From contig CAVQVW010000004.1 in the NCBI GenBank assembly GCA_963717285.1, positions 710,905 to 774,904 of the forward strand: a stretch of 64,000 bases of DNA, in the 5' to 3' direction. The translations under genes and the position numbers were made by a program. Positions 1 through 17,872 of the stretch are shown piece by piece; the stretch's first letter is position 1, and each line of letters opens with the position of its first letter. Origin of the DNA: an uncultured Thermoleophilia bacterium (lineage in GTDB: Bacteria; Actinomycetota; Thermoleophilia; UBA2241). Under the pieces are notes generated by a model. That model was given only the letters and a program-made list of their open reading frames with translations. It was not told the DNA's origin and ran no database searches.

Positions 1-606
1 GCGGAGGCTGCTCTGCGCCTCATCGACGCGGAAGGGCTCGACGCCTTGACCATGCGTCAGCTGGCGCGCGACCTGGGCGTCACGCCCGTCACGATCTACC
101 GTCAGATCCCCAGCAAGGAGGCTATCCTGGCCGTCGTGGCGGAGCGGCTATGGCGCGACCTGAGGCCCGCCGCTGAGGCCGTGCCGGCCAGCGCCGGCTG
201 GCGCGCGCAGATCGGTGCCATGTGGCTGGGACTGCATGCGGTGATGCAGGCGCACCCGAACGCCATCCCTCTCCTCGCCAAGGCCGGCGCCTACTCGGTG
301 TCGGCTGCCGGGGGTACGGTCGCAATGGCCGCGGTGCTGCGCGACGCCGGCCTGACGCCCGACGAAGCCGCGGAGCAGCTCCACCTGCTGTCCGCCTGCA
401 CGGTGGGCTTCGGCTTCGCGACGCTGTGGGGCAGTGAGTATGCTCGCGGAGAGTGGCCAGAGAAGCCGGCGGGGCCGCCCATTGAGACACCGCCGCCAGA
501 GCTCCGACCATACCTTGAGCGCATGGCGGTGTGGGACCCGTCCGAGTTTCCCAGGGCCTTGGCCACAATCTTGGCTCTGGCCCGAGGAGGCAGCTCCAGT
601 TCATGA
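1..606 (+). CDS. TetR/AcrR-family transcriptional regulator (5'-partial; starts before the window)
   Basis: In-frame coding from nucleotide 1. N-terminal HTH motif LTMRQLARDLGVTPVTIYRQ is typical of TetR. Confidence 0.75.
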   Translation, partial: AEAALRLIDAEGLDALTMRQLARDLGVTPVTIYRQIPSKEAILAVVAERLWRDLRPAAEAVPASAGWRAQIGAMWLGLHAVMQAHPNAIPLLAKAGAYSVSAAGGTVAMAAVLRDAGLTPDEAAEQLHLLSACTVGFGFATLWGSEYARGEWPEKPAGPPIETPPPELRPYLERMAVWDPSEFPRALATILALARGGSSSS

Positions 607-661
607 CAACTGGCAGAGCCGACACCCAAGAGGCGAAGACGACGATCTGATAGGGGGAGAC

Positions 662-1420
662 ATGTCCGGTCCAGATGAACCGACCGAGCCGACCACACCG
701 CCGCAGCAACCACCACCACCCGAGCCCCCGCCGACGCCACCCGGAGCGGCACCAGCGGTGCCACTTGCGCCCGGGTCCCCGCCGCGAGCGCCCGAGCCCT
801 ATGCCGCGCGCCTGGACATCGACTACCCCGAGAGGCTCGATCGGCTCTCGACCTTCTTCCGGCTGATCTGGATCATCCCGATCTACATCATCCTCTCTCT
901 GCTCTCCGCGGTCGCGAGCTGGACCGTGATCACGCAGAGCGGCGAAGCGGTCACGAGGAGCAGCGGCGGGATCACCAGCGGGCTCTTCCTCGCGACGCTG
1001 CTGATGATCCTCTTCCGGCAGCGCTACCCGCGCTGGTGGTTCGACTTCGCGCGGGAGTTCACGCGCTTCGTGGCGCGGGTCTCGGCCTACTTCGTGCTGC
1101 TCACCGACCGCTATCCCTCGACCGTCGAGGAGCAGTCGGTGCATCTCGAGATCGACTACCCCGACGTCGAGCGCGACCTCAACCGCTGGCTGCCGCTGGT
1201 CAAGTGGTTCCTGGCGATCCCGCACTACATCGTGCTCGTGGTGCTTGCCGTGGTCGCGGTCTTCGCGGTCCTCATCGCCTGGTTCGCCATCCTCTTCACC
1301 GGGCGCTATCCGCGGGCGCTCTTCGACTACGTGGTCGGGGTCAGCAGATGGGCGCTTCGGGTCGAGGCCTACGCCTTCTTGCTGGTCACCGACCGCTACC
1401 CGCCGTTCAGCCTCAAGTGA
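662..1420 (+). CDS. DUF4389-like membrane protein with a Pro-rich N-terminus
   Basis: Duplicated RLDIDYPERL...IPHYIVL motif and hydrophobic helices. ATG at 662 lies in frame within the longer ORF. Confidence 0.6.
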   Translation: MSGPDEPTEPTTPPQQPPPPEPPPTPPGAAPAVPLAPGSPPRAPEPYAARLDIDYPERLDRLSTFFRLIWIIPIYIILSLLSAVASWTVITQSGEAVTRSSGGITSGLFLATLLMILFRQRYPRWWFDFAREFTRFVARVSAYFVLLTDRYPSTVEEQSVHLEIDYPDVERDLNRWLPLVKWFLAIPHYIVLVVLAVVAVFAVLIAWFAILFTGRYPRALFDYVVGVSRWALRVEAYAFLLVTDRYPPFSLK

Positions 1421-1434
1421 AGTGAGGGGGCGCT

Positions 1435-1863
1435 GTGCTGGTCGCAACGGGGGTCGCCACGCTCGTGCTCGGTCTGATCGGCTTCGGCGGCCAGTTCCTC
1501 TCGACTCTGAACTGGCCCCTCGCGCAGAGACTCCGGCTCCAAGAGGCCGACGAGCACACCGACCCACTCTTCCGCCGTCTCGAGCGCAACACCGCAGTGT
1601 GGGACCTGTGCAGTTGGTGGACGCTGCCGGTAGCAGGCCTGCTCATGCTGATCGATCACGCCTGGTGGCCCTTCGTGGCCGTCTTCGCCGGCGGGGTCTA
1701 CCTGGACACGACAGGCCGGGAACTGGCGAAGCTCTGGGGCTTGGGCAGCGAGGGCGTCAAGACCGGAACGGCGCAGGACGCCCGCACGAGATTCGTCTTC
1801 CTGCTCGTCACAGGCGGCGCCGGTCTCTGGGCTGCCGCCTATGCGGTATTGGAGTTGCTCTAG
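1435..1863 (+). CDS. hypothetical membrane protein
   Basis: 142-aa ORF with 3-4 predicted TM helices, on the same strand as its neighbours. Confidence 0.45.
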   Translation: MLVATGVATLVLGLIGFGGQFLSTLNWPLAQRLRLQEADEHTDPLFRRLERNTAVWDLCSWWTLPVAGLLMLIDHAWWPFVAVFAGGVYLDTTGRELAKLWGLGSEGVKTGTAQDARTRFVFLLVTGGAGLWAAAYAVLELL

Positions 1864-1872
1864 GAGGCACTC

Positions 1873-2010
1873 ATGAGGGCAATCGTCTACCACGAGTACA
1901 GTCCACGGCACGTCCCGCAACTCGCGGACTCCCCCGAACCCACCATCGGTGACGACGACCTGCTGATCGGTCCCCGCGCCACCGCTGTGGACCATCTGGA
2001 GTGGCACTGA
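1873..2010 (+). pseudogene. N-terminal remnant (46 aa) of a Zn-dependent alcohol dehydrogenase / quinone oxidoreductase (MDR family)
   Basis: MRAIVYHEYSP...PEPTIGDDDLLIG resembles an MDR N-terminus. GGAGG ribosome-binding site lies upstream. A premature TGA ends the reading frame. Confidence 0.4.
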
Positions 2011-2459
2011 TGGACATCCATGCCAGTCTCCCGCTCAGCTCTCGACTGATCCTCTACGTCATCCTCGCTGCGATCGCGTTGGTCACCGCTATCGTCTTTT
2101 GGGCACAGCTTGGCTGCATCAGAGGCAGGCCCTTCGAGAATCCGGACGGCACATGCGACGACTGGCGGGAGCAGAAGGTCTTCTATGGGATCGCCTGGGC
2201 AGACCTGGTCGTAGCCTGTCCGACGTCGTTCGCCGCCCTCATCCTGATCTTCACTGCGCCGCGATGGGGCTTCTACTTGATGGGCATGGTGAGCTTCTGG
2301 TTCGTGTGGGCCAACGTCATGACCACGGTCACGAGCCTCCGGTTCGAGAATCCGCGAGTCACGTTGCAGTGGGTCATCGTCTTCCCGCTCGGTGTGGTCA
2401 TTGGACTGGCCTACATCGTCTGGACGTTGGCCCACTTCGGCACGTTGTTCGGGACTTGA
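2010..2459 (+). CDS. hypothetical membrane protein
   Basis: About 150 aa with four hydrophobic segments. An alternative GTG start lies at 2001. Confidence 0.45.
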   Translation: MDIHASLPLSSRLILYVILAAIALVTAIVFWAQLGCIRGRPFENPDGTCDDWREQKVFYGIAWADLVVACPTSFAALILIFTAPRWGFYLMGMVSFWFVWANVMTTVTSLRFENPRVTLQWVIVFPLGVVIGLAYIVWTLAHFGTLFGT

Positions 2460-2469
2460 GAGGACCCCC

Positions 2470-3077
2470 GTGAACGCTCTTCTCGCGTGCGGGCTGCTCA
2501 TCGGGCCGATGTACGTGTTCTTGTACCTCCTTGGCGGCGCGCTGAGGCCAGGCTACAGCCACATCTCTGACTCGGTCAGCGAGCTGCTCTCGCCGGCGCC
2601 CCCAACAGGCAGATCCTGGTCATCATCCAGGTCGCGTACGCGCTGCTCCACGTCCTGTTCGGGCTCGGGGTCGTCTGGGTCGTGGCTGGCTACGAACAAG
2701 GCACCACGTCCGGCCTCATCGGGGCCTTGGCGGTCGTCGCCATCGGTGTGGCTACGATCGGCACGGCGATCTTCCCCCAGGACGCGCACGGCACCCCGAC
2801 CACCGCAACCGGTCAGACTCAGAAGGGCCTCGTGTTCGGCGTCCTCGTCCCGGGCTCGATCGTGTCCACGGTATCCCTCGGTCTCTGGTCGAACCAGGCC
2901 GGCGTCCTCTCCGGATTCGACGTGTACTCCTACGTGACCGCCAGACTCATCGTTGTCATGGGTGGCGTCGGCGGCGCGACCGTGAAGACGCGGTTCGCGG
3001 GGCTGTCGGACCGTGTGGCAGCCGTCGTGGCCCACCAGTGGCTCTTCGTCCTGGCACTGCTCCTGCTCATCCACTGA
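2470..3077 (+). CDS. DUF998-like membrane protein with an apparent +1/-1 frameshift near 2595-2605 (poly-C run)
   Basis: Two frames join at ELLSPGAPNRQILVII. An ISDSVSELLS motif is followed by multiple TM helices. Confidence 0.5.
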
Positions 3078-3396
3078 CGAACGACGGGCGGGTGCTCTGC
3101 CGTTTCGGGCTGGCGGATCCCTGCCGCTTGTGACCCAACATTGCGGGTGGACCGATCTCAGGGGTGCAGGTCACTCGCTGGCACTGCGCGGCACTGGAGA
3201 GCGCCGTGTTCGCACCTCCCGACAGCCCGGCTGTAGCCACTCTGCAACCCAAATGCGTGCGTCTGGACGGGACGAGCCGGGGAGCGATGGGTGCGGACGG
3301 GACTGCGGAGACGTCGCCCCGTCGGGGCATGGAGGCGTTGTCCTGCGGCCGCCCTCGCCCATTGGCGCTTCGCGCCTCGGCCTCCGCGGCAGACCC

Positions 3397-3730
3397 CGTG
3401 GTCCATGGACACGGCGTGAAGCTCCACGAGTTGGCTTTCGCTCCATCGATCTGGGAGCAGGCTATTGAGGGCAACGACAAGGCGCTTGGACGCGTCCTCG
3501 CGATAGTGGAGAGGCGGGCGAAGCTTCTCGGGCTTGACGCGCCGGCAAAGCGTCCGGCAGAGGTGAGCCCCACCGGCTTGCGCCTCAAGCGGGAGACGCT
3601 GGTCAAGCAGATCCTTTCCGAGTGCCGCGGCGAGGGCGCGCTACCCGCCGAAGGCGAGCGCGACCGCCCCTACGAGACGATCCAACCACAGAGGCCCATC
3701 TGTGGGTCGATGAAGGAGGGCGAGCAATGA
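3397..3730 (+). CDS. hypothetical protein, possibly phage-related (terminase-small-subunit-like ...ERRAKLLGLDAP motif)
   Basis: ORF downstream of a repeat-derived segment. The call rests on weak motif similarity only. Confidence 0.2.
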
Positions 3731-3876
3731 CAGAGGCAGATGAGAACGAGCCTGCCGACTCGACGGCCGGGTCTTGGCGATCCTGCGACAGAAGGCGGAG
3801 TACTTCGGCGAGCGAGCGGTGGCATGCTCGTCGCGGAAGGCGCCCCGCCGTCGCGGCGTGACAGCACCTCGTCGGC

Positions 3877-6009
3877 TCAGCCGATGATCACGATGCCCAG
3901 GTAGCCGTCCACGGTCACCCGGTCGCCGCTGCGGATGAGCTCGGTGGCGCGAGGCACACCGGTGACGCACGGCAGGCCATATTCGCGTGCGATGATCGCG
4001 CCGTGGATGAGCATGCCGCCGCGGCGCTCCACGATGCCGGCGGCCAGCGGCACGATGGAGGTCATCTCGGGAGCGATGGCATCGCAGACGAGGATTTCGC
4101 CGTCGGCGAATGTCGTGAGATCCTCCCGGCCCTCGATGACCCGGGCCGTGCCGACGGCCAGGCCCGGGCCGGCGGGCTGCCCGACGATCTGGCGCGCCTG
4201 AGCGCGCAGGCCGGCGGGCGCGGCCTGCCCGGCGGCCGCCAGTCCGGATCCCGTGGGCCCCACCGTCCCTGCCTGCTCAGCGCCCAGTGGCGAAGGCAGC
4301 GTGACCTCCCGCGGGCGCAGGTGCTCGTCGATCGGGAGACCGCGGCGCTCCGCCTCCTCGAGAGCGGCAACGAGGAGACGCTCGAGACGGTCGAGGTACA
4401 GGTTGTCGTCATCACGCAGTCGCCAGCTCGCGCGACCCAGGTCGAGCAGCTCGGCCGCTCGCTGCCGCTCGGCCTCCGGATACGCCTCGATGAAGCGCCG
4501 GGCGCGGTCCGCAGGGTCGGGGCGCGTCACTGCCCTCGCTGCCGGACGCGCCGCGAGCCGCCGGGCGACCTGCAGCACCTCGGCGCGAGCCTCGCCGCCC
4601 TCGCGGGCGGCATCGCCGAACTCCGCCAGGTACTCATCCAGCGCCCGTGCCGCGGCCTTCTCCTCCCCGCCGCGCAACTGCGCGGCCACCTGTTCCAGTG
4701 CTGCGTTGCGCCGCAGGCTGATCATGGGGGTGCCTGCAAGCAGTTCGGTGAACTCGTATGGATCCTCGGGGTGCAGCACGTCGTTGTAGGCGGCTCCGAA
4801 GAGGCGGGCACCGTGCGCGAACGGGATGAAGTCGGCGGTGTAGACATCCACGCCGCGGTCGTGGGCGGCCTTGCGCTCCTGTAGGGCCGCACGCAGGCTG
4901 GCGTCGTCCAGACCCTCGAGTGACGCGGCCTCAAGGCGGTCGGCGGCGGCCGCGAGTCCCGGCAGGTCCTCGTCCTCGATGCGGCGGCGCAGCCTTTGCA
5001 GGCTTTCGAAGCTGCGCCGCAGGCTGAGGTACGTGGAGCGTCCGTCGCCGGCCTCGCCACCCAGCGTGGTGATCGGGCGCGACTGGAGCGCGTACAGATC
5101 GTCGCGCCGCAGCGTCCATTCCACGTCTTGCGGCGCCTGGAAGTGGCACTCCGCGTGCCGCGCGAGACCGTGGACGCGAGGCACCTCATCGGCCGCCAGC
5201 GGAGCCCTGCCTTGACGGTCGCGAGGCAGTGGCACGAGATGCACGCCGTCTGCTTGCTCCGTGATCATCTCCCGACGCTCCACGGACCGATGCTCCAGGA
5301 TGGCACCGTCGCGCCGGTCCACGGTCCAGCGGTCGGGCTCGACGACGCCGTCCACGAGGCCCTGGTTCAAGCCATGGACGGCCTCGACCACAGCGCGCGC
5401 GTCGTCGTCCGGATGACGGCTGAAGGCGACTCCTGAGCGCTCGCCCGAGACGATCTCCTGTACGACGACCGCCATCACGCTGCGCGTGGGATCGAGCCCG
5501 AGCTCGCGGCGGTACAGCAGCGCCGCGTCGGACCAGAGTGACGCCCACACGAGCTTGACGTGTTCGAGGACGGCGTCCGACCCTCGCACGTTCACATACG
5601 ACTCGTGCAGCCCGGCGAACGAGGCGCCGGCAGAGTCCTCCCCCGGCGCCGACGAGCGCACCACGGTGGCCCTCCCCGCGAAGCGCGCGGCGAGCGGCTG
5701 CGCCAGCGCCGCGCGCAGCTCCTCCGGCAGCGGCGTGGTCAGGAAGAGGCTGCGGATGCGCAGCGCCGCGTCCCATAGCTCCTCCCAGCGCATGTCCGCG
5801 AAGTCCTTGCGCTCCAGCTCGAAGAGGATGCGCGCCCGCAACTTCGAGGCATCCAGGTAGGCCTCGTAGGCATCGGTGGCGATGGCCACGAATGCCGGCA
5901 CGGCGATACCAGCGCGTGCCATGTGCGCCAGCGAGAGGGCCTTGCCGCCCACGCGTTCGGCGACGCTCTCGTCGATCTCTTCCTGAGGAAGAACGAAGCC
6001 GGGGCGCAT
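3877..6009 (-). CDS. PEP-utilizing enzyme family protein (pyruvate-phosphate-dikinase-like ATP-grasp N-domain plus C-terminal mobile His domain; PEP synthase / rifampicin-phosphotransferase-like)
   Basis: N-terminal GGKALSLAHMARAGIAVP (PPDK_N) and C-terminal GGMLIHGAIIAREYGLPCVTG motifs. The start is placed at the MRPGFVLPQ methionine. Confidence 0.75.
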   Translation of the reverse strand: MRPGFVLPQEEIDESVAERVGGKALSLAHMARAGIAVPAFVAIATDAYEAYLDASKLRARILFELERKDFADMRWEELWDAALRIRSLFLTTPLPEELRAALAQPLAARFAGRATVVRSSAPGEDSAGASFAGLHESYVNVRGSDAVLEHVKLVWASLWSDAALLYRRELGLDPTRSVMAVVVQEIVSGERSGVAFSRHPDDDARAVVEAVHGLNQGLVDGVVEPDRWTVDRRDGAILEHRSVERREMITEQADGVHLVPLPRDRQGRAPLAADEVPRVHGLARHAECHFQAPQDVEWTLRRDDLYALQSRPITTLGGEAGDGRSTYLSLRRSFESLQRLRRRIEDEDLPGLAAAADRLEAASLEGLDDASLRAALQERKAAHDRGVDVYTADFIPFAHGARLFGAAYNDVLHPEDPYEFTELLAGTPMISLRRNAALEQVAAQLRGGEEKAAARALDEYLAEFGDAAREGGEARAEVLQVARRLAARPAARAVTRPDPADRARRFIEAYPEAERQRAAELLDLGRASWRLRDDDNLYLDRLERLLVAALEEAERRGLPIDEHLRPREVTLPSPLGAEQAGTVGPTGSGLAAAGQAAPAGLRAQARQIVGQPAGPGLAVGTARVIEGREDLTTFADGEILVCDAIAPEMTSIVPLAAGIVERRGGMLIHGAIIAREYGLPCVTGVPRATELIRSGDRVTVDGYLGIVIIG

Positions 6010-6016
6010 GGTCGCG

Positions 6017-6466
6017 CTACGGGAGGTGCAGTTCGGTGACATTCTGGAAGCGGCTGACGATGTAGTACGTCTCGACGGTAAGCTCGACCAGCGCACTGGA
6101 GGGTGCACTCGCAAACGGCTTCAGGTGCGGATGCCTCGCAAGAAAGGCGGTGAGCTGCACGGCGCGCTCTTCGCCCTCGAGCTCGCGCGCCGTGCCGACC
6201 GCCGTCGCGGCGACGGTGCCATGAAAGTCGAGGTCCTCGTCCGAACGACTGTCGACGAGCATCGCCACCCGCGGCTCGGCACTCAGAAAGCCGAACTTGC
6301 GGGTGGCACGCGGCGTACTGAAGTAGAGGTGCGCGAGATCCTCCGAGGCGCGCACCGCCACCAGGCTCGCGTAGGGATGTTCGGGTCCGTGGGTAGCTAG
6401 CACGCCGAGGCGTTGCCTCGCGAAGAGTTCGCGCAGCAGCTCAAGAGGCTCGGCACAGGTGTCCAT
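6017..6466 (-). CDS. pyridoxamine 5'-phosphate oxidase family protein (general-stress-protein-26-like)
   Basis: 149-aa ORF with a PNPOx-like FMN-binding split-barrel signature. It is tightly coupled to the upstream gene. Confidence 0.55.
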   Translation of the reverse strand: MDTCAEPLELLRELFARQRLGVLATHGPEHPYASLVAVRASEDLAHLYFSTPRATRKFGFLSAEPRVAMLVDSRSDEDLDFHGTVAATAVGTARELEGEERAVQLTAFLARHPHLKPFASAPSSALVELTVETYYIVSRFQNVTELHLP

Positions 6467-6962
6467 GGCTGCGCTCTACCCAACCCCGCGGCAAGGCGAA
6501 CCAGCCGGGACGCGATAGTCTCGATCGCGACGCCCGCGCGAGCGACCACCGCCCACTGAGGAACGATACACATGAAGAAGATCGGCATCGTCACCCGCGC
6601 AATTGCAGGGGTTTGTCTGTTCCTATGGATACCGACGACCCCGCTCTGCAGCCCGCCCGCAATCCTTTTTGCAGCCGAACGCAGCGTCAGGCAGCGATTC
6701 TGAGCGGCATTCGCCGGCACTGGGCGGCACTACGGCCTGAGATCCGCACACCGCACCGGGGCAGCGCCCGCCGGCCCCGAGACGATCGGCTTCCCGGACT
6801 CCGACTTCGCCCCGCCGAAACCTATGCCGGAGGTGGCTCAGGGACCAACACAAGAAGTGGACCGACGAATGGGATCCGGTCAGATCTGCACCCCTGGAGT
6901 CGGTCCACCTGCAGTGTCGGGTCTCTCGACGGGTGAAGGAGGCAGATCATTCCGAGGACCTC

Positions 6963-7265
6963 CCACGTGTTCCTCCTGCAACCCTCCTGCAACCGCACCT
7001 AGCGTCATTGGGTGGCACTCAATGTCACTAGGTAGCAGATCGACGCGATTCTCTACGCGTAGAACGGCACTCCCTGGCACTTGGCGGCACTACCTGACAC
7101 CATTTCTACAGCCCTCTCACGGCGGTAACACGGGTTCGAATCCCGTATGCGCTACCACCCCATTTCAGGTTCAAATGCAGGGGTTTTGCGTACTCCCGAG
7201 GATTCCGACGACCCCTTCTGCAACCCGTGTGCAGCCCTCCTGCAACCGAACCTGGCGTCACTTGA
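6963..7265 (+). repeat. Composite A-C-A repeat element: A iteron module (6963-6997), GGCAC 10-bp repeats, tRNA-3'-half-like C core (7092-7166), second A module (7226-7262)
   Basis: Near-identical copies occur at 58515-58810, 61805-61995, 38195-39900 (interrupted by an insertion sequence) and 19025-19410. The core ends GGTTCGAATCCCGTATGCGCTACCA. Confidence 0.8.
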
Positions 7266-7369
7266 TGGCTCTCGCTGTCACTCGGCGGCAGATCGACTCG
7301 GTTCTTCACGCTCGGAGAGGCACTGGGCGGCACCCAGCAACATGTGCTGACAGACTCGCGCTCGGCTAG

Positions 7370-8422
7370 TCAACTCCTGTCCGCCCCTAGACTCCTGAGC
7401 ATGTGGCCTGCACGGCGTCGTGCCTGCCAGTAGACGTCCGGCGCTTGGCGGCGTGCGACCTGCCACTCCTCGTCCAGCGACCAGAGCCGGGATCGCTGGT
7501 TCGGATAGACCGAGAGGGGAGTGGCGCGATGCGGTCTCGCTCCCAAGCGGGACTTGAACTCCTCGTTGCCCCAGAGCAGGTTGAAACTCCGGAAGCCTCG
7601 GGAGATCGCGTCACAGACGTCCCAGTAGATTGCGAGCAGCGACAACCCGTAGCGGTCAAAGCCAGGCTGCACCGCCGCCTGCTGGGCACACACGCTAGTC
7701 CCCACCGGGAAGTTGAACGAGAGCGCCGCCATCTCACCGTCGATTGATGTCAGGCGAATCTCCCCCCGGCGTCTCAGCAGAGCCTGGAGGTTGCGGGCAA
7801 CCTGCGGATGGGTCTCCCAATACGTCTGCTTCCCCCGTGCATGGAAGCTGGCTTCCTTCCACTGCACCAGCTGCCTGAGCAATGCGGGCGCCCTCTCGTC
7901 GACGGGCATGGTCTTCGTTGCCACCTCACTGAAGTCCCGCCTCAGTCGATTCTGATAGCTGCGCAGGTGCCTGCTCCTGCCGAGCGATGCGGCGTACTCC
8001 TCCTCGGTCTCGGGCAGCTCTATCACCATGTGATCGGTGTGGTGGAGCACCCTCGAAGGGAGAGCCAGTGTCGAGGGCGCAAACATCACCTCGAAGTGGA
8101 TGCGGCGCACGTGCGGAAAGGCGCGGAAGAGCGCTTGGCCGGCGCGCCTTGCGTCTTCTGGGGCGATGTCGAACGTCTTGTTGAGGATTTCGACGGTCGC
8201 GCCCTTGCCCGTGAAGAGCAGCACATGGCGAGGCTTCTCCAGGATGCACGCTCCCATCCATTCGGGCATGTCATGGGTCTCGAACCAGTCGACAGTCGCG
8301 AACAAGCTCGAATAGAGTCCGTCGAGCTCGGCAGCATAACGACTCGGGTCGACTCGGGGGTGGACCCTTGCGCCAAGATCGGCGAAGAGGAACGGGCCAG
8401 GCCGACTAGCGGACCCAGACAT
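7370..8422 (-). CDS. GNAT-fold N-acetyltransferase (CelD/BcsL / Acetyltransf_6-like)
   Basis: 350-aa ORF with a ...LLWGNEEFKSRLGARP motif. An intact reading frame. A frameshifted copy lies at 60509-61690. Confidence 0.55.
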   Translation of the reverse strand: MSGSASRPGPFLFADLGARVHPRVDPSRYAAELDGLYSSLFATVDWFETHDMPEWMGACILEKPRHVLLFTGKGATVEILNKTFDIAPEDARRAGQALFRAFPHVRRIHFEVMFAPSTLALPSRVLHHTDHMVIELPETEEEYAASLGRSRHLRSYQNRLRRDFSEVATKTMPVDERAPALLRQLVQWKEASFHARGKQTYWETHPQVARNLQALLRRRGEIRLTSIDGEMAALSFNFPVGTSVCAQQAAVQPGFDRYGLSLLAIYWDVCDAISRGFRSFNLLWGNEEFKSRLGARPHRATPLSVYPNQRSRLWSLDEEWQVARRQAPDVYWQARRRAGHMLRSLGADRS

Positions 8423-8555
8423 CAGGCGGTCGCGTCTTCGTTGTTGTCTCGCGCATGGACTCACACTCGGCGCGAGGCGAGCGCCCCGTCGAGCCGTGCG
8501 CGAATCCCATGCGCAGTAGGGCCGGTCTCGGACGAATGCCTCGCATGCTGGCATA

Positions 8556-9069
8556 CTACCCGACGATCGGCCTCACCGGGCACCGTTCATCGGTCCTCTT
8601 CCCACGATAGTCCCAGAGCCACCTCCGGCATAGGTTTCGGCGGCCCGTGGTCAGCGAGCGAGAAGCGGGGAAGGCGATTGTCTCCGGTACCAGCGGGCGT
8701 TGCCCCAGCCAGCTGTGCGGGCGCAGACTGTTGTAGAGCCGGCGCCAGTCGGCGATCAGGATCTGCGCCTCCTTGAGCATGGAGAAGATCTCACCGTTCA
8801 GAAGCTCGTCGCGCAGCTTGTCGACGAACGACTCGATGCTAGCCGTTATCCCAAGGTTGGGCCGGCTCGATTAACCGGCTGGTGACGCCGAGCACGCTCA
8901 ACCACTCCCCGACGGCTCTGGCCACGAACTCGGGTCCGTCTTCCGATCTGATGTGCTCGGGGATGCCGTACTGAAGGAAGAGGTCGGAGAGCGTCATCAG
9001 CACCTCGTGGCTTCTGATGCGGCGCGCCACGCTGATCGCCAGGCATTCGCGCGTGTACTCATCGACCAC
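8556..9069 (-). pseudogene. IS3/IS481-family transposase C-terminal fragment (rve integrase core), interrupted
   Basis: ...DGPEFVARAV...PWDNG then ASIESFVDKLRDELLNGEIF...WRRLYNSLRPHS. An internal stop/frameshift separates the two parts. A B-module inverted repeat follows at 8573-8642. Confidence 0.7.
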
Positions 9070-9094
9070 GGTGAGCAGCTTCAGCGGGCGCCCG

Positions 9095-9232
9095 TCGTGG
9101 GTGTGACCTGCACCCCTGGCATCGGTCCACCCTCGGGGCGGTGGATCTCGCGAGGCATCCTCTGGCTCCTTGATCGGTCGCGAAACCCTGCAGTGAAGCT
9201 GGGCCGATTTCAGGAGCGCAGGTCATGAGTAG
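9095..9232. repeat. Inverted pair of D modules (MITE-like, roughly 135 bp) with TGACCTGCACCCCTG...TCGGTCC termini
   Basis: D' at the left and D at the right in inverted orientation. Single D copies occur at 3140-3175, 6880-6935, 10255-10300, 34095-34165 and 45565-45640. Confidence 0.6.
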
Positions 9233-10030
9233 TCCCGACCGCAGGAGCCCGGCAAGCTGTAGTTCGTAGAACTCGGCGTGCCCATGCTTCAGGTAGCGCG
9301 ACGACGCGTAGCGGGCCAGCCGCAGAACGGGCAGGCCGGCCACCTCGGGCTCGTGCTCGCAGTCCCCGTCACCGCAGTCGAGAGCGTGTGCGAAGCTGTC
9401 GAAGAAGCCGGGCAGCATGGCGTCGATGTCATAGCCCACCTTGAGGACCTTGGGCTCCGGGAAGGTGATTGGTGCCTCCACCCCGGCGATGCGCACCGTC
9501 TCGTACGGGTAGTAGCGCTTCACGAAGTGGCGGGTGCGACGCACGGCGACGACGTCGAGGATGTCGAAGAGCTTATCGGGCGAGAGATCGTCGGGGTCGA
9601 GCGCCATCGCCTCGCCGAAGTGCTGCTTCAGCGAGCGGATGCCTACATGGGCGAAGGCCGCATCGTTGCGGATGAAGTAGCTGAGCAGGCAGTAGAGGTC
9701 CCAGATCGAGTTGTTCACCGGGGTCGCAGTCAGGAGCACGAGGTCCTTGGGCGGCGAGCCTTCGAGCGGGCGGCGTAGCACCGAGGCCCGAAGCGCGTCC
9801 GGGTTCCGGTACGCCTGCGCCTCGTCGATCACGATCATCGCATACTCGTCCTTGTCGAAGACAAGGTGGTCGCCGTCGCCGTCGGGGTTGAGCTGGCGGT
9901 CCTTGGACAGTCCCTCGTAGGAGAGGTTCTTCACACCGAGCTGCTCGCGCTCGAGGAACGCCTTCCACAGGCCGTCACGCAACACAGCGGGGCTGACGAG
10001 CAGTACGCGCTGGCGGCGCCTAACGAGCAC
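9230..10030 (-). pseudogene. SNF2-family helicase fragment (motifs Ia-III only; both ends missing)
   Basis: RVLLVSPAVLRDGLW, DEAQAYRN (DEAH box) and LLTATPVNNS are present. Walker A and the C-terminal helicase lobe are absent. The ORF's N-terminal extension is repeat-derived. Confidence 0.6.
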
Positions 10031-10254
10031 ACCGAGTCGCTCAAGAGGGCCTCGATCTTCTACTACTACGGCGGCACGCAGCCGTTGCGGGCGGGGCTGG
10101 ATCCGGCGTACGCGGTCGTGCTGCTCGCCGTCGCGGCAGTCCTGATCGCGGTGTCCTTCCCACTCTTCCAGCGCAGGGATGTGCGCGAGAAGGACTAGGC
10201 GCCACCACGTCGGAGAAGCCGTCGCGCGGCTTCGGCTGCCTCCTGGTGCCGGGG

Positions 10255-10720
10255 TCATCTGCGCTGACCTGCACCCCTGGAATCGGTCCAGGCTGGACTG
10301 TGGCTCTCCGGCCGATGACGGACGGTGGGGACGTGTGGGCTCCTCCGATATGTCCCGTCTGCAACCCTCCTGCAACCGAACGCAGCGTCACGCGACGGCG
10401 GCATCCAGTATGGCCGAGCCGGCCGCCACACTTGAGAGGCCGACATCGTTGTGGATATCGAAGAACTCGGAACGGCGTCGAGCGCGACTGCGCGACGACG
10501 GCGACCTCCTTCCCGGCCATCGCCATGGTGACGGCCAGGTTGCACACCAACGTGGTCTTGCCCGCCTGTGCTCGCGCAGGTCACTTGACGACGTCCGTCG
10601 GGGGCTGAGGCGATCGTCTTCCCCGGCTTCTCACTCTCCGACTTCTCCCCGCCGGGACCTGTGCGGGAGGTGGCCCTGGGACTAACATAGGCAGTGGACC
10701 GACGAACGGGGTCCGGTCAG
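10255..10720 (+). mobile_element. Non-autonomous IS-derived element: D' left end, A iteron module (10355-10395), internal ParA/MinD-like ATPase fragment (10430-10570, minus strand), B right end (10650-10720)
   Basis: The module order D'-A-cargo-B matches the shorter A-B copies. The internal fragment reads RAQAGKTTLVCNLAVTMAMAGKEVAVV (deviant Walker A). Confidence 0.5.
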
Positions 10721-10856
10721 CCGCCACAAGGGTGCACGACGTCGACGCTGCTCGCATCATATCTGGCTGCCTGCCGATCGAGATCCCGCCTAGCTGTGAC
10801 GGCCTCCGGTCACGACGCGGCTTTGCCGCAGCGGGACCGAGCGGGAGAATAGGCTC

Positions 10857-11606
10857 GTGAACCCAGTGCTTCCTACATGGGGTGCCAACGTGGCTGTGAT
10901 CGTCGCCGGCTCGCTGCTGGTCGGTTGTGGTGCAGCAGGCGATGGGCCCTCCGCAACGCCATCTCTCCACGGCTCGCCGAAGCCGTCGGGCGCCAGCGCT
11001 GACGGAACGGGTGCCCTTGTCGTCTTCGACGGCGACTCCCTTACCGTCGGCTACCGGATCGGCTCTCGGGAAAGCTACCCCAGCCAGGTTGCGCAGAGCC
11101 TCCCGGAAGGCACATCCACACTCAACGTCGCCGTTTCGGGCCAGACATGGCCGGACCTATCGGCCGACGCCGTCGAAGAAGTGGATGCCCAGTACTCGGT
11201 CGACCGCCCGGCCAATGTCGTGGTCGTATGGGCGGCAGCCAACGACCTGGCGACGGGCTACACGGCGAAGGAGGTTGCCCACAACGCTCGCGACTACTGC
11301 GCTCAGCGCCGCCGGCACGGCTTCGCGGTCGTCCTCCTGACTATGTATCCACTGCAGCCAAGAGGCATCGACGCCGACTACGAGCGCGAGAGGCGCGCCT
11401 ACAACGAGCTGCTGCGCGCCGGGTGGCACGAATACGCTGACGCCCTCGTCGACGTAGCAGCCGACAGCCGTCTCGGCGGCGAGTCGGGACAAGATCGCTC
11501 GCGGTACTTCCTCGACCCCGTCCACCTGAACGCGGCGGGCTACCGGGTCGTCGCCGAACTAGTGGCTCAAGTCCTGCGGCCGCTCATCGGAAGTCCGGCG
11601 CAGTGA
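10857..11606 (+). CDS. SGNH/GDSL hydrolase family lipoprotein
   Basis: Signal peptide with lipobox LVGC, GDSL motif VVFDGDSLTVG, and catalytic DPVHLNAAG. Confidence 0.7.
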   Translation: MNPVLPTWGANVAVIVAGSLLVGCGAAGDGPSATPSLHGSPKPSGASADGTGALVVFDGDSLTVGYRIGSRESYPSQVAQSLPEGTSTLNVAVSGQTWPDLSADAVEEVDAQYSVDRPANVVVVWAAANDLATGYTAKEVAHNARDYCAQRRRHGFAVVLLTMYPLQPRGIDADYERERRAYNELLRAGWHEYADALVDVAADSRLGGESGQDRSRYFLDPVHLNAAGYRVVAELVAQVLRPLIGSPAQ

Positions 11607-12039
11607 TCGTAGTCAACCCTCCTGAGTTGTATCCCCTTCGGGGCGTCGGCACGACGCTCTGCGAAGTGCCCAAGCAGCGCCTGTGCCGACTTCTCAGAGC
11701 AGCACCCCATACCGACTACCCGGACTAGCGTCAGCCCTTGTCGACCTCCGCCGTGCATGTGCGTCGCAGTAGCCCTCACGAACAGGGAAACCGACGTTCC
11801 GAGCGTGGAATCGGCTGGCCGGCGACACGCCCACGCTCAATCCTGAGAGGAATGACTTCGCGAAGAAGCGTCACTTGTGGTCTGAGGATGCTCAGAGGCA
11901 GCACCCACGGCACCGGGAGCATAGGGTCGGGCGAAAGCCTCAGCCAGGGCTAGACCATCCGGGCTCGCGATACTTCCGCGGAGCAGTAGAGTGGCACGCC
12001 CCGGGTTCCGCGTCGGCTGAGTTACTTGGGAACCAAGCT

Positions 12040-12200
12040 TCCTGAGGCTTGCTGATTGTACTGCTCGAGCACCTGCAGCGGCGTTTGCCGTCTCATCTGC
12101 CCGTTGCTCGTTCGCGGACCGCTGTCGGAGTGCGCGACGAGCCCTTCGTCGCGCTCGTAGCGGGCGGACAGCGCCATGTCGAAAGCACCGATGTCCTTCC
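12040..12200 (-). pseudogene. degenerate rve-type transposase fragment
   Basis: Minus-strand translation ...GLVAHSDSGPRTSN... resembles the IS3 OrfB catalytic region. There is no intact ORF. Confidence 0.25.
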
Positions 12201-12502
12201 GCCAGGATCAGGTGACCCTGGAAACGGAGCCCCCGTCTAGCCTAGGCCGCGCTCAGAATGGGAAGTAGTCCTCGCTCGATTCAGAGCCGATGAGCGTCTA
12301 GGGGCTTCGACTTCCGTCGATGCGTGACGTGGCCGTCATGTCGCGGCTACGTGCGACCGCCTACACACCGGCGAGCAGGCGGATGCCCGCCTCTCGATTC
12401 ATCCGACGGCACACGGGGAACCTCTGGGGTGCGGGAACGTCCTCTTCTTGGGAGGCGCGACCCCGGCCGGCCCTCACCCCCGATGCGAAGGAGTCTCCAT
12501 CC

Positions 12503-13711
12503 ATGGACATCGTGAACCGCGCAACCATTGTCCGTCTGGCCGCCGTCAGCGGCTGGCCGTCGGTTTCGATCTACCTCCCGACGCATCACCGCCCCACCCA
12601 GGCAGAACCGGACCGCATCCGCCTGCGCAATCTCGTGAGCGAGGCACGACAGGCGTTGATCGCGGGCAGACTGCGCGACACGGACGCCGATGCGCTGCTC
12701 GCACGCGTCTCGACCCTCTCAACGACCAAGGATCTGTGGAGCGGTGGTTTCGAGGGGCTCGCGATCTTCGTGACGGCGGATGGGACGGAAGTCCTGCGCG
12801 TGGACACGCCGATGCCGGAGAGAGCCGTCGTGGGCGACCGCCGCTACCTGCGCCCGCTGTTCGCCGTCTACCACCGCGACATGCACTTCTGGGCGCTCGC
12901 GCTCGACAAGAACGGTGTGCGGCTCGTGCGCGGCGACCGCACCTCCGTCGGGGAGGTCTCGCTACCCGCCGGCACGCCCGTCAGGCTCGAGGACGAGACG
13001 AAGTACGACATACACGACGTGGCCCTCCGGTTCCAGACGATTCCGGGCGTCGGCCCCGAGCAGGGCCGCGGCGTCGCTCAGTACCATGGGCACGGCGGCG
13101 AGAAGGATGCCGACAAGGTGAGCCTCCTGCAGTTCATCTCCGACGTCGCCCGCGGCGTCACCACCGTCATCGGCGCACAGTCCACCGAGCCGCTCGTGGT
13201 ACTCGGCGTCGACTACATCGTCGACGCCTACCGCGGGGTGGCGTCGTACGCGGGCATCGTTTCCGAACGGCTCGATGGTGCGACGGGACACCTGAGCGCC
13301 ACCGAGATCCGTGACCGGGCGCTGACGGCGCTCACCGCCCGTATCGCGACGACAACCGAGGCCGACATCGCCGAACTCGCGGAGAAGACGGGCACCGGAT
13401 TCACGTCCGCTGATCCGGCCGAGGTGTTCGCAGCCGCGGCGGCCGGACGCGTCAAGACGCTCTTCATGGATGGCGGGGCGGGCCCATGGGGGACGGTCGA
13501 TCGCTCCACACTCGTGGTGAGCACCGTGTGTGACGGCCAGCCGACCTACCTGCGCGACCCGGCCGCACCCGAGGGAGTCGACGAAGCGCAGTGCGGCTGG
13601 GACCTCGTGGACCTCGCCGCGGTCGAGACGATCACGCACGGCGGCACCGTACACGCATTTGCCGATGAGGGATCGCCGGTATCGGGAGTCGCGGCAGTCT
13701 TCCGCTACTGA
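12503..13711 (+). CDS. hypothetical protein, possibly baeRF (bacterial eRF1-like, Rv2629-like) family
   Basis: 402 aa with an AAGGAG ribosome-binding site 10 nt upstream of the ATG. The family call is tentative: Asp-rich with a conserved HFWALALD...VRLVRG segment. Confidence 0.4.
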   Translation: MDIVNRATIVRLAAVSGWPSVSIYLPTHHRPTQAEPDRIRLRNLVSEARQALIAGRLRDTDADALLARVSTLSTTKDLWSGGFEGLAIFVTADGTEVLRVDTPMPERAVVGDRRYLRPLFAVYHRDMHFWALALDKNGVRLVRGDRTSVGEVSLPAGTPVRLEDETKYDIHDVALRFQTIPGVGPEQGRGVAQYHGHGGEKDADKVSLLQFISDVARGVTTVIGAQSTEPLVVLGVDYIVDAYRGVASYAGIVSERLDGATGHLSATEIRDRALTALTARIATTTEADIAELAEKTGTGFTSADPAEVFAAAAAGRVKTLFMDGGAGPWGTVDRSTLVVSTVCDGQPTYLRDPAAPEGVDEAQCGWDLVDLAAVETITHGGTVHAFADEGSPVSGVAAVFRY

Positions 13712-14078
13712 AGTGAGCGCCGGCGACGTGACCCGACCCCATTCGTTGGTCCACTTCCCATGTTAGTCCTATGGCACACTCCGGCACGACCCCACAAGCG
13801 GTGGACCGAGCAGCGGGTCCAGTCAACGTCATGTGATCCCCTTCTCTCGAGCGGGCACACACGCCGTAGGGCGAGTTCGACCGCTTGATGCGCCTGTGCG
13901 TGCCTGCGCACAGGGCGATCTCCACACGCCTCCCCGTCTGCCGCGCGGGCAACGGGAAACAGTGGGGCTGCGACCGGTCTCTGTCGATGCTTGTCGCAGG
14001 AGTCCATGAAGGGGCATGCGGCCGAGTTGCCCCGAGAGCCGTGTTGCCCCGGACACGAGCGACGGGGGTGCGCTTCTC

Positions 14079-15133
14079 ATGAGACCCAACCTGCCCAGAC
14101 GCCTGCTTCTGATCACCGCCATCGCCTCGCTGACGCTGCTCGTTGCGGCCACGCCGGCGTTCGCCGGCTGGTCGGTGCAGCAGCTGACCGACAACACCCG
14201 TAACGACCGCAACCCCCGCATCGACCAGGGCCAGGTCGTCCGGTCCAGTGGCTATGGCAACTCGAACGCCGCGAACTACATCTACCTCTACGACATCAAT
14301 CAGGGCGGTCCGGTCGACCAGCTAAGCAGCAACGGCCCTACGATGAGTCACCCCAGATCGACGGGGGCTGGGTGGTCTGGAGTGCGTACGCTAGCGGCGG
14401 AACCGGAGACATCGATGTCTACGCCACCCGCAGCATCCCGGGAAGCCTGATCGTCAATCTGAGCAACAGCAGCGGCGCCTACTACCCCCAGATCGACGGG
14501 GGACAGGTGGTCTGGACGAGATCAGTCTGGCAGGGCTCGTTCGGGTACCCGCAGGTCTTCCTCTACGACCTCAACCAGGGCGGTTGGGTCGTGCAGCTGA
14601 CCAACGGCACCACCAGCAACACCAGGCCTCAGATCGACCAGGGCCAGGTGGTCTGGACGGAGCAAGATGGTCAGGACCACGCGGTCAACCTCTACGACCT
14701 CAACCAGGGCGGCCCGGTCGTGCAGCTGGCCGCGACCACGACCCCCATCCACGGCCTCCAGATCGACGACGGCCAGGTGGTCTGGTACTGCTCCGACGGG
14801 CAGGACAGCGAGATCTACTTCGCAGTCTACAAGGACGCGAACCAGCAGATCGGTGAAGTCGAGGACTTCTTCGACGAAGCTGTGGCCGATGGGACCCTGC
14901 TGGGCAGCGGGCCGGGAAGATCTGCCGCGGGGCGGCTCGGTGCTTTGGACAACATGCTGGCGCAGGTCGAAGCCTACATAGAGCAGGGCGACACCGCCGC
15001 CGCCGTCAAGCTGCAGAGGGTCTACGATCGCTGCGACGGGCAAGCCCGCCCACCGGACTTCGTGGGCGGGTCGGCGGCCTCTGAGCTGGCCAGTCTCGTG
15101 CAGGAGTTCATCGACGAGCTGAGCGCGATGTAG
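14079..15133 (+). CDS. secreted repeat protein (tandem ~45-aa PQIDGGQVVW / LYDLNQGG beta-propeller-like repeats) with a C-terminal helical domain; frameshift near 14370
   Basis: Signal peptide MRPNLPRRLLLITAIASLTLLVAATPAFA. Repeats are seen in both overlapping ORFs (14016-14450 and 14372-15133). Confidence 0.5.
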
Positions 15134-15344
15134 CAGAGTGCGTCGGAAGAGCCGGGCTCAGGAGTGACGGAGGCCCTTCGGGGCCTCCGTTCTCGTCCGT
15201 CTCCCCAGCGATTGCCACCCCCGTCACCTGAGCGGGATGACCATGCGCCGCCCGTCGCGGCGAAGCTCCGCGCAAACGCCTTCGCCTCGGCTTCGGCCAG
15301 GCAGACGGACAAGGCGACTTCCGAGCATTCCGCCGACCCCTCTC

Positions 15345-15515
15345 TGCAACCCGTCTGCAACCCTCCTGCAACCGAACCTGGCGTCACGGGATGGTGCTGG
15401 GCGGTGGTCGCTGGCATTTCGCGGCACATAGACGCGCCCTCCGACTTCGCCCTCCGGTACGTACGCGGAAGGTGGCTCTGGGACCAACATGAGAAGTGGA
15501 CCGACGAATGGGGTC
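15345..15515 (+). repeat. A-B MITE-like element (about 170 bp)
   Basis: A module CTGCAACCCTCCTGCAACCGAACCTGGCGTCAC and B terminus ...GGACCGACGAATGGGGTCCGG. Sister copies lie at 16400-16566 and 25058-25292. Confidence 0.75.
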
Positions 15516-15684
15516 CGGGCCACGTCCCGGCCAGTGGGACCGTCTCCGACTGCGGCGCTACGTGCGTCTCGGAACGCGAGAGCGCAGACCTGCGTGGAGC
15601 GGTCTCCGATCTTGCGAGCGCGTTTCCGGACGGCTGATTCAGGAAAGGCCAAGGGCGGGATCTGCCATCTAGTCGGAGGGTGTC

Positions 15685-16368
15685 ATGGCCGCCAGCAGGA
15701 AGTGGAGCGAGCTCAGCAGCCGCAGCCGCAAGCTGATCGTCGGCACCGGAGTCGTGGAGGCCACGCTGCTGTTGGCGACCCTCATCGACCTCAGGCGTCG
15801 CCCCGCAGATCAGGTGAACGGTTCGAAGCGGATGTGGACTGCGCTGGCCTTCGTCGACATCATCGGGCCGATCGCGTACTTCTCCCTGGGGCGGCGGCGA
15901 GGTGCCAGCGACATGAGCGCGACTACCACTATCGGAAGGCCTCCCGATGAGGTCTTCGCCTACCTTTCTGATGTCGGCAACGATGTGAACTGGCGTACCG
16001 GGATCGTCGACTCTGGGCTGCGGTCTGACGGGCCCGCCGGAGTGGGCTCCGTTGGGTACGCTCGCACTGGGAAGACCGAGGCCGTCTACCGGATGACCGC
16101 GCTCGAGCCGCCCTCACGCGTTGACTGGGAGTTCGTCGAAGGCCCACTCAGCGGGCGAGGTGGCTATCGACTTGAGCCTGCCGAGAACGGTACGCGATTC
16201 ACGCTGGCCGCCGATGTCCGGCCATCTGGCCCGATGAAGCTACTGGGGCCCGTCTTCACGTGGATGGTGCGTCGCTGGAATCGCTCTGACGTCGAGGCTC
16301 TGCGGACCATCCTTGAGTCTGGGACGGGCTCGTCGGGCAGCCAGAGTAGCACCGAACCAGCGGACTGA
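15685..16368 (+). CDS. fusion protein: PLDc_N-like N-terminal membrane domain plus SRPBCC (Bet v1/polyketide-cyclase-like) domain
   Basis: WTALAFVDIIGPIAYFSLGRR motif, then an SRPBCC-like PPDEVFAYLSDVGN...W...YRLEP region. Confidence 0.5.
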   Translation: MAASRKWSELSSRSRKLIVGTGVVEATLLLATLIDLRRRPADQVNGSKRMWTALAFVDIIGPIAYFSLGRRRGASDMSATTTIGRPPDEVFAYLSDVGNDVNWRTGIVDSGLRSDGPAGVGSVGYARTGKTEAVYRMTALEPPSRVDWEFVEGPLSGRGGYRLEPAENGTRFTLAADVRPSGPMKLLGPVFTWMVRRWNRSDVEALRTILESGTGSSGSQSSTEPAD

Positions 16369-16399
16369 GCAGGCGCGCCCGAGCGCCGGATGATCCCTT

Positions 16400-16566
16400 T
16401 GTGCCGCCCTCCCGCAACCGAACCTAGCGTCACACGTTGGTGCTGGGCGGTACTCGCTGGGACTGCTCGGGACAACGGCGAGCTTCACGACGAGGTCGCT
16501 GGCACCTATGCGGGGGGTGGCCCTCCGACCAACATGCGAAGTGGACCGACGAATGGGGTCCGGTCA
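16400..16566 (+). repeat. A-B MITE-like element
   Basis: Same module order and termini as 15345-15515. Confidence 0.7.
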
Positions 16567-17526: not shown

Positions 17527-17704
17527 GGTATCGTGATACCCGCACGAGAATGGCTCCAAGCCGTCGGCGCAGATGGACGTGCTACGCGAGGCCGGCGCAT
17601 ACGGGATTGCTCTGGCTCCTGCATGTCCGGTCGCGCTCTTGGGTAGATAGAGTGCCCGGCCCCGTCGGAGGTGCGGACGAACACCGATGCGAAAGTGAGG
17701 GACG

Positions 17705-17860: not shown

Positions 17861-17872
17861 AGGAGGCAGACT

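Follow-up and report, generated by a model that had tools for sequence, protein, structure and literature searches.

A tRNA-Glu(CUC)-derived composite repeat from an uncultured Thermoleophilia bacterium, probably an attachment site of stacked integrative islands

An uncultured bacterium of the class Thermoleophilia carries, in a 64,000-nt stretch of contig CAVQVW010000004.1 (positions 710,905 to 774,904 of the forward strand; hereafter the window), a composite repeat that raises a simple question: why does the 3' part of a tRNA lie, several times over, between copies of a second repeated module? At 6969-7333 (+) the composite comprises, in direct order, an A module, a 44-nt tRNA 3' part (C; 7114-7157), a hairpin (T) and a second A module. 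A first-pass annotation had described this A-C-A layout, with phased GGCAC repeats and the tRNA 3' part, at 6963-7265, and the sequence is as described. The tRNA part was taken there for a mimic, belonging either to an unusual tRNA-derived mobile or structured-RNA element or to a recombination hotspot; an integrase attachment (att) site was considered and set aside because the copies are dispersed. Here it is argued that A-C-A is probably a complete attP-type site of integrative islands which target tRNA-Glu(CUC) by means of a heterobivalent tyrosine integrase. So understood, it is a known phenomenon at large scale, unusual mainly in that scale, and is neither a new RNA nor a new mobile element.

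The composite and its tRNA part

The left A module (A_left, the proposed P arm) occupies 6969-7113 (+), and its architecture is conserved in loci of a related metagenome-assembled genome (MAG) and in the metagenome locus L207. It contains a pair of CTGCAACC repeats 11 bp apart (6976-6994, +), the conserved sequence CCGCACCTAGCGTCA, a perfect palindrome, TCTACGCGTAGA, at 7052-7063 and, besides three GNCAC sites at a 10-bp period, four 10-bp-phased sites near the core at 7066-7100 (GGCAC at 7066, 7076 and 7086; GACAC at 7096). The repeat string first quoted for this copy is real and belongs to the copy at 58.7 kb (TCCG/TCAG/GGGGCAC), the copy at 6963 reading CGGCACTCCCTGGCACTTGGCGGCACTACCTGACAC. 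The arm ends in cAGCC, an imperfect left core half-site, and the core reads ACAGCC-CTCTCAC-GGCGG-TAAC-ACGGG-TTCGAAT-CCCGT-ATGCGCT-A-CCA. The segment from loop to CCA (7114-7157, +), delimited by its match to tRNA genes, its identity among copies and its left boundary, consists of the anticodon loop CTCTCAC, the 3' anticodon stem, the variable loop, the T arm, the 3' acceptor strand, the discriminator and CCA. The anticodon-arm-like hairpin described earlier has the loop CTCTCAC as reported, and a stem, CAGCC/GGCGG, which includes one mismatch.

Directly after CCA, a CCCC..GGGG hairpin followed by TTTT forms the terminator-like element T (7158-7187, +), recognised by reading the sequence rather than by a terminator scan; its stem is not returned by RNAalifold. 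T is also present behind the tRNA part in L207. A 30-nt linker leads from T to the right A module (A_right, the proposed P' arm; 7218-7333, +), which opens with three CTGCAACC-type repeats, spaced 11 bp apart, and further carries the conserved CCGAACCTGGCGTCAC and phased GNNNCT/GGCAC sites. In this copy A_right is of a long form ending in non-tRNA sequence, possibly a secondary-site junction. Both periodic motifs occur far above chance: GGCACN5GGCACN5GGCAC, with up to two mismatches, has 21 matches (0.59 expected), and CTGCAACCN3CTGCAACC, with up to three, has 29 (0.69 expected).

Where the tRNA part comes from can be read from its occurrences elsewhere. Its last 25 nt (GGTTCRAATCCCGTATGCGCTACCA) were found by a contig scan in at least 120 metagenome contigs, and 94 of the 123 listed occurrences lie inside intact tRNA-Glu(CTC) genes identified by ARAGORN; the remaining 29 are tRNA-less 3' parts. 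The intact genes of high-G+C contigs (for example L101, L105 and L110) read ...CCGCCCTCTCACGGCGGTAACACGGGTTCGAATCCCGTATGCGCTACCA, and GGCGCATTCGTCTAGGGGCCTAGGACGCCGCCCTCTCACGGCGGTAACACGGGTTCGAATCCCGTATGCGCTACCA is likewise the reading of tRNA-Glu(CTC) genes in high-G+C metagenome contigs. The ATGCGCT acceptor strand, seemingly odd, is the own strand of a widespread tRNA-Glu(CUC), since GGTTCRAATCCCGTATGCGCTACCA sits in intact genes. To judge by sequence, the tRNA 3' part is an exact copy of that of a real tRNA-Glu(CUC) and no mimic; the first-pass annotation had itself suggested that a match to a genuine tRNA gene would point to an att-site remnant, and tRNA-Glu(CUC) genes of metagenome contigs provide that match. 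The tRNA-Glu(CUC) of Sinorhizobium also aligns with C, from the anticodon stem to CCA. In a PLSDB megablast of positions 1-20000 the sole match was 7108-7157 (40-47 nt), to tRNA-Glu genes, and a plasmid origin was set aside on that result. The apparent mimic would, in short, be ordinary integrase biology.

Could the segment nevertheless work as an RNA? A functional tRNA-derived structured RNA, an sRNA or tRNA-like regulator transcribed from A and ended at T, would account for the terminator-like hairpin directly after C, the intact T arm and the encoded CCA. The sequence, however, does not differ from the tRNA-Glu 3' part, and the 5' side of the supposed anticodon stem varies freely or is cargo. 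RNAalifold on 12 copies gave a covariation term of -0.16, with the T arm as the only conserved helix, so that the compensatory changes proposed as a check are lacking beyond a single one in the T stem. That one notable double change, ACGGG/CCCGT to ATGGG/CCCAT, occurs in L092, the most distant copy, and is not evidence for a new RNA. Rfam returned nothing in the window at gathering score and nothing at composite sites up to an E value of 1, which also disposed of a known RNA family. ARAGORN called no tRNA gene in the window or in nine related loci; a tRNA or tmRNA gene is thereby ruled out, in agreement with the earlier statement that C is not a tRNA gene. The structured-RNA reading is largely refuted already, and we hold it to be very improbable. 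Elsewhere in the window, a weak match to the COG3943 RNA (28 bits against a gathering score of 72, E 0.46) at 23350-23428 (-), at the start of a multicopper oxidase gene, is probably due to chance.

Boundaries, relatives and a candidate integrase

If C is an integrase core, its left edge should be informative. Across 14 copies from four sources (the window, the related MAG and two other contigs) the similarity sets in at CTCTCAC, to within 0-3 nt, and to the left of it lies either the A_left arm or unrelated cargo. The anticodon loop is a classic crossover point of tyrosine integrases. The tRNA part (44 nt) is 98% identical among 10 copies from two genomes, as against 77-83% for the arms and T linker; this identity and the two-sided change in the T stem of L092 are expected if the copy must yield a working tRNA.

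Relatives were sought with an 18-mer from the A core. Of the 98 loci obtained, about 90 matched by chance, and true relatives were found only in Thermoleophilia, as six loci of one MAG and a single copy, L092, in a second MAG. The six 8-kb loci lie on CAVYDV010000008.1 at contig positions 1.08-1.224 Mb, a span of at least 144 kb, and contain 20 A copies and nine tRNA parts in the 48 kb sampled. The window is distinct from this contig: shared cargo genes are 88-97% identical and their neighbours differ.

Contexts resembling island ends are present among the metagenome loci. L207 is attR-like, with the full A_left architecture, the loop, the tRNA part and T, followed by unrelated DNA. Junctions of the attL-like kind, in which an intact tRNA-Glu gene has a TGCAACC pair 7-60 nt beyond it, occur in six contigs, to be read against a background of 33 TGCAACC pairs in 1.26 Mb; in eight further contigs a TGCAACC arm lies behind a tRNA-less fragment, as at an internal junction. 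The arm in attL-like lineages continues ...TGCAACCCAAATGC...GGATGGCAC and is homologous to the A core and to X, the native continuation of A_right. At the attL-like site in L147 the first genes beyond the arm are cargo (cation efflux, oxidoreductases). Junctions of another kind, in which cargo directly abuts the loop and is followed by the tRNA part, T and A_right, are found at L010 6566, L022 3922 and L084 5865.

As to the enzyme, no integrase was found in the window, either by Pfam on about 58 open reading frames (ORFs) or by an integrase-clade profile against the six-frame translation. The MAG array, in contrast to the window, contains a Phage_integrase catalytic domain (L058 4864-5484; Pfam 1.2e-21) at a distance of about 1 kb from an A-X arm. 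This integrase is truncated at the right end of an IS3-family insertion sequence (IS) and lacks its N-terminal half. Homologues of the fragment (40-47% identity) occur next to tRNA-Glu(CUC) genes in six or more metagenome contigs, all retrieved through the tRNA 3' end alone; because of this adjacency the clade can be called tRNA-Glu(CUC)-associated. In L116 a distance of about 80 nt separates the end of the integrase ORF from the tRNA 3' end. The tie of this clade to the A arms is circumstantial. A crude motif search for integrases in TGCAACC-bearing metagenome loci found none, and the clade profile matched only in other tRNA-Glu loci. The helix-turn-helix gene next to the L058 integrase has its C-terminal half conserved at window 3450-3610, behind X.

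These elements can be combined into a mechanism. C would be an island-borne tRNA copy, from anticodon loop to CCA, together with a terminator, and on integration the island's tRNA 3' part and terminator would replace the native ones and so restore the tRNA. The integrase is predicted to bind core half-sites formed by the anticodon stem (cAGCC / GGCGG) and to exchange strands in or beside the 7-nt anticodon loop. With A_left as the P arm and A_right as the P' arm, the CTGCAACC repeats, which are directly oriented on either side of the core, are likely arm-type integrase sites, and CTCTGCAACC-like sites in both arms would position the enzyme. The phased GGCAC sites beside the core are likely accessory sites for a DNA-bending protein or a directionality factor. 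Which protein would bind which repeat is inferred from position and conservation; the order of events and any present activity of the sites are likewise inferences. The conserved TGCAACC and phased GGCAC sites amount to a concrete and testable attP model for an uncultured lineage.

Successive integration into the regenerated tRNA, or tandem accretion, would leave a P-core-P' junction (A-C-A) between islands, while integration at secondary sites would give the junctions in which cargo meets the loop directly. Tandem and secondary-site integration are both documented for islands that target tRNA genes (PMC4383910, PMC3146451). The att site would be repeated because several, mostly integrase-less, islands are stacked here, and dispersed because of tandem and secondary-site integration and one inverted duplication. 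The earlier remark that phased repeats beside a tRNA 3' end resemble att sites was sound; the dispersal that led to its rejection is accommodated in this way, and the alternative of a recombination hotspot is right in a loose sense only. Nearly all array members, in the window and the MAG, appear to have lost the integrase, and would be cargo islands akin to cis-mobilizable elements. The anchor of the array is expected to be a tRNA-Glu(CUC) gene ending ...CCCGTATGCGCTACCA at one array end. Later, the array would have been reworked by inverted duplication and by IS3-, IS256-, IS110- and IS5-type insertions.

Such a site has known counterparts. In actinobacteriophage attP, a tRNA-derived core is flanked by arm-type pairs on either side and is separated from the right arm by a terminator (PMC3203893). 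The anticodon-loop att sites of heterobivalent tyrosine integrases (those of actinobacteriophages such as L5, Giles and Cluster K phages, of actinomycete integrative elements and of the anticodon-centred class of Islander) resemble the composite in having as core a tRNA copy from the loop to the 3' end, a displaced or restoring fragment bounded at the loop, direct 10-11-bp repeat pairs that flank the core on either side within about 270 bp, and a terminator between core and right arm (PMC3203893); the Phage_integrase remnant in the related array is a further likeness. The composite differs from them in that its arms share about 100 nt and not only short sites, its P arm has seven to eight phased GNCAC sites, and no integrase gene lies beside any copy in the window.

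Stacking, too, has precedents. In Dehalococcoides, over a dozen repeats of ssrA lie within 100 kb, and some members lack an integrase (PMC3146451). On the Islander principle, regenerated tRNA genes and displaced fragments mark island ends; arrays of three or more were found in only 4 of 2168 genomes, a tandem being counted only if each member has its own integrase gene (PMC4383910). The tandem tRNA and tmRNA islands of these studies share with the window many direct repeats of a tRNA-gene 3' part within tens of kilobases, strain-specific accessory cargo between them, some members without integration genes, and high plasticity (PMC3146451, PMC4383910). They differ from it in several respects. 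The site here is a long-armed attP of the tyrosine-integrase type, whereas that at ssrA is a 20-bp repeat used by a serine recombinase. Density is high here, with five to six copies in 64 kb and nine in the 48-kb MAG sample, although the Islander criterion is stricter; and there is heavy overprinting by IS fragments, with one inverted duplicate. The region would represent an unusually dense and large stack of tRNA-Glu-targeted islands, most of them without integrase, in a little-studied class. It also carries a warning for annotation, in that tRNA fragments and arms can pass for novel repeats, iterons or RNA genes. Partial tRNA 3' sequences without a 5' half, left by mobile-element integration, have been mistaken for pseudo-tRNAs (PMC9897764); those described here show no substantive difference, except that they are not even called by ARAGORN.

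Further copies, solitary arms and insertion sequences

How much of the array follows from integration and how much from transposition depends on the remaining copies. All five composites noted in the first-pass annotation were confirmed, with the loop at 7114 (+) and at 58669, 61958 and 39759 (-) and a stub at 19153-18997 (-); a sixth, divergent one had been missed. A modules are recurrent, as stated there, and number 19 in a profile search rather than about 10. Four of the five composites lie on the - strand, and the + strand copy is an inverted duplicate. The duplication, of 1.67 kb and 96% identity, relates 7084-8737 (+) to 61987-60326 (-) and carries the tRNA part, T, long-form A, a GNAT acetyltransferase gene and an IS3 right end. 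Its second GNAT copy appears disrupted.

In the copy at 58366-58810 (-), which precedes a polysaccharide gene cluster, A_left (58810-58701) is followed by the tRNA part (58669-58626), T, A_right (58561-58488) and a module, B, which ends in the right inverted repeat (IRR) of an IS3-family element at 58366. The copy at 37996-39901 (-) has A_left at 39901-39792, A_right at 38236-38165 and B with IRR to 37996; its T arm is split by an IS256-family element (38332-39738) flanked by the 8-bp duplication AACACGGG. In the copy at 61734-63447 (-) a second IS256-family element (about 63400-61995; Transposase_mut) parts the start of A (63447-63402) from the last GGCAC sites, the tRNA part (61958-61913, with one extra G), T and A_right (61848-61734). 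Both insertions had been recognised at first pass. The stub (18997-19153, -) retains a tRNA part that has decayed and begins in the T arm (CCCGTATTCGCTACCA, 19144-19129), a degenerate T and A_right (19065-18997).

The sixth composite (44985-45246, -) consists of an A-type P arm, a tRNA-Ala(UGC)-like 3' part, a hairpin and a TGCGACC/TGCAACC pair. Its tRNA part reads GCTTGCACGGCGGAGGTCAGCGGTTCGACTCCCCTGCGGCCCACCA and is decayed, with a T-stem mismatch and no U70. It may be the site of a sister integrase specificity using the same arms, or a hybrid. A local Rfam scan of 44900-45300 gave noise only. An IS110-family element (43630-44984, +, boundaries approximate; ORF 43908-44969) lies after the second TGCAACC of its P' arm, as the earlier placement of an IS110 inside an A module implied, and on its far side are an X-like TGCAACCCAAATCG site, with another TGCAACC, and B (43628-43500). 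TGCAACC is thus found at both ends of the IS110 element (flanks 44985-45000 and 43630-43700), which raises the possibility that IS110 targets the arm-type repeat.

A copies without C would be what is left of P' arms. Most are joined to the right end of the IS3-family element, through ancestral deletions of which there would have been two or three. They include solitary A with B at 25055-25293 (+) and 31245-31486 (-); solitary A with a short B at 15347-15521 (+; a second type of A::B junction, upstream of an SRPBCC gene), 16396-16566 (+; abutting a trypsin-like peptidase cassette) and 35251-35424 (-); solitary A followed by native X at 18420-18592 (-); and solitary A at 19348-19415 (-). At 3132-3310 (+) a reverse-oriented left inverted repeat (IRL) of the IS3 type (3132-3174) cuts the tail of A and is followed by X (3175-3310), the native A_right continuation, with a further TGCAAC-like pair. 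Just upstream of the 7-kb composite, a unit of T remnant, A and B without a tRNA part (6598-6882, +; B ends GGATCCGGTCA) is followed by an IS3-family left-end fragment (6885-6968, +) with a degenerate IRL, the ribosome-binding site AAGGAGG and the first OrfA codons, fused to A_left. A conserved small ORF through A was considered and rejected, the reading frames differing among copies.

The B module, present after most A_right copies, encodes the last 50 or so codons of IS3-family OrfB (...LRPHSSLG.RPPAPE...) and ends ...GTGGACCGACGAATGGGGTCCGGTCA, the IRR. The element concerned has an OrfA beginning MPQKRYRPEEI..., an OrfB with an rve domain, and inverted repeats TGACCTG/GACCCC...; a full-length copy lies in L010, with ends at 4647 and 5912, and a further OrfA-OrfB copy at the edge of L084 (stretches 2-763 and 2032-3244). 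A longer transposase fragment in the window, from the rve core to the C-terminus with one frameshift (8573-9132, -; IRR at 8573), abuts the GNAT gene. IS3-family stretches are also seen at 9105-9130 and 10265-10290.

This association suggests that the composite might be a passenger of a non-autonomous, MITE-like derivative of the IS3-family element (MITE, miniature inverted-repeat transposable element), with the order IRL - A - tRNA part - A - OrfB tail - IRR. It would have been spread in trans by the transposase of full-length copies, such as the MAG has, and the att-like sequence, captured once, would now be cargo. IS3 left-end fragments (IRL, ribosome-binding site and first OrfA codons) do lie directly upstream of A_left, and the OrfB C-terminus and IRR lie directly downstream of A_right in most composites. 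Different cargo is joined exactly at IRR ends, and identical A::B junctions are met repeatedly. In several places IRR faces IRL across a spacer of 2-9 nt, an arrangement reminiscent of IS3 circle or tandem junctions. In most composites, however, IRL is truncated or absent, and right-end fragments greatly outnumber left-end ones in the window (at least 14 against about four). The only unit with both IS ends, at 10265-10719 (+; IRL, a truncated A at 10352-10400, B and IRR), has the flanks CTGCGC| and |GCCGCC and no target-site duplication. Relatives in other metagenomes have the arms and the tRNA part free of IS3 sequence, both at intact tRNA-Glu genes and in attR-like contexts; nor is a near-perfect tRNA part, as against 80% elsewhere, expected of passive cargo. 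The A::B junctions fall into no more than two or three distinct types; they therefore arose few times and then spread with the arm. Given the lack of a target duplication at 10265-10719 and the ragged or variable boundaries, we treat the IS3 layer as a secondary overprinting and do not derive the repeat from it. The passenger explanation is considered unlikely, and the IS3 layer may all the same have contributed to shuffling.

Several observations weigh against an attP-type site for integrative islands as the whole explanation. There is no intact integrase and no intact tRNA-Glu gene in the window or the sampled MAG loci, which leaves the array's anchor and the acting enzyme out of sight. Protein binding to TGCAACC and GGCAC is suggested by position and conservation. 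A_left and A_right are alike over about 95-110 nt, at 78% identity; a likeness of about 100 nt far exceeds what short arm-type sites need and is unexplained. The 19 A copies compare with five to six copies of C, roughly three to one. On their left, solitary A copies stop at ragged positions, which speaks for illegitimate deletion and not for site-specific exchange. Where units adjoin cargo, their right boundary is precise and coincides with an IS3 IRR end; transposase or homology, rather than an integrase, may therefore account for part of the spread. The sixth composite has A-type arms around a different, Ala(UGC)-like tRNA part, and cargo segments are often single genes in either orientation.

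Cargo between the repeats

An integron-like gene-capture platform also has to be considered: single- or few-gene cassettes, each with a full attP-type site, would be shuffled in trans by one heterobivalent integrase, with A(-B) units as cassette boundaries or promoters. As in integron attC arrays, unrelated and diverse accessory genes are parted by a repeat family of about 70-240 nt, and cassettes are shared while their order differs: paralogous cassettes shared with the MAG (88-97%) have different neighbours, and similarity ends exactly at repeat units. The scale is at least 144 kb, and A-B units usually lie upstream of the next gene. The repeats differ from attC sites in that they lack both the form of an imperfect palindrome and single-strand folding, and their orientation is mixed; an attC-like hairpin was rejected, since single-strand DNA folds of four A copies, on both strands, gave z scores of -1.8 to +2.5 against shuffles. 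The repeat moreover holds a tRNA part and IS3 remnants. The window has no IntI integrase with attI and Pc heading a co-oriented cassette array, repeats and genes lying on both strands, and neither an integron-type nor another intact integrase stands beside the array in the window and the sampled MAG loci. The left boundaries of A units are ragged, as noted above, and where a cassette boundary is exact it is an IS end and not a recombination core: in the cargo shared by window and MAG, similarity stops on one side exactly at IRR and on the other at variable points in or before T or A. A platform of this kind seems quite unlikely. We give as little credence to its fullest form, a working Thermoleophilia system in which one trans-acting heterobivalent tyrosine integrase shuffles small integrase-less units, each with a tRNA-Glu-derived attP, as an integron analogue built on double-stranded, arm-containing att sites, the tRNA-Ala-like composite (45246-44985) being a sister specificity with the same arms.

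If the composites are instead attP-type sites of stacked islands, regions such as this would be places where accessory and defence-type genes gather. Defence- or conflict-type genes in the window encode a Schlafen AlbA_2 protein with a weak, sub-threshold GmrSD_C match, a baeRF (eRF1-like) protein and a SNF2-helicase fragment, and the spans concerned are 59027-60790 (-), 12320-13711 (+) and 9059-10375 (-). Between two of the att composites lies a 13-kb polysaccharide cluster (45588-58330, -) with epimerases, GT1, GT2 and GT4 glycosyltransferases and a flippase-like protein.

Some further rearrangements were observed. A 491-bp direct duplication of 95% identity (20195-20685 and 21466-21956) lies in the region of an NmrA-like gene. 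The trypsin-like peptidase gene at window 16567-17557 has a 97% identical counterpart in L084 of the MAG, which is flanked there by inverted IS3 3' halves (254-792 and 2003-2541) with their IRR ends inward, like an inside-out composite transposon. In L207 an IS of about 1 kb (3290-4281), bounded by 19-bp inverted ends (CTAGATGATTGATTCCACG), has entered A_left at CTAG, an independent IS hit in an A module.

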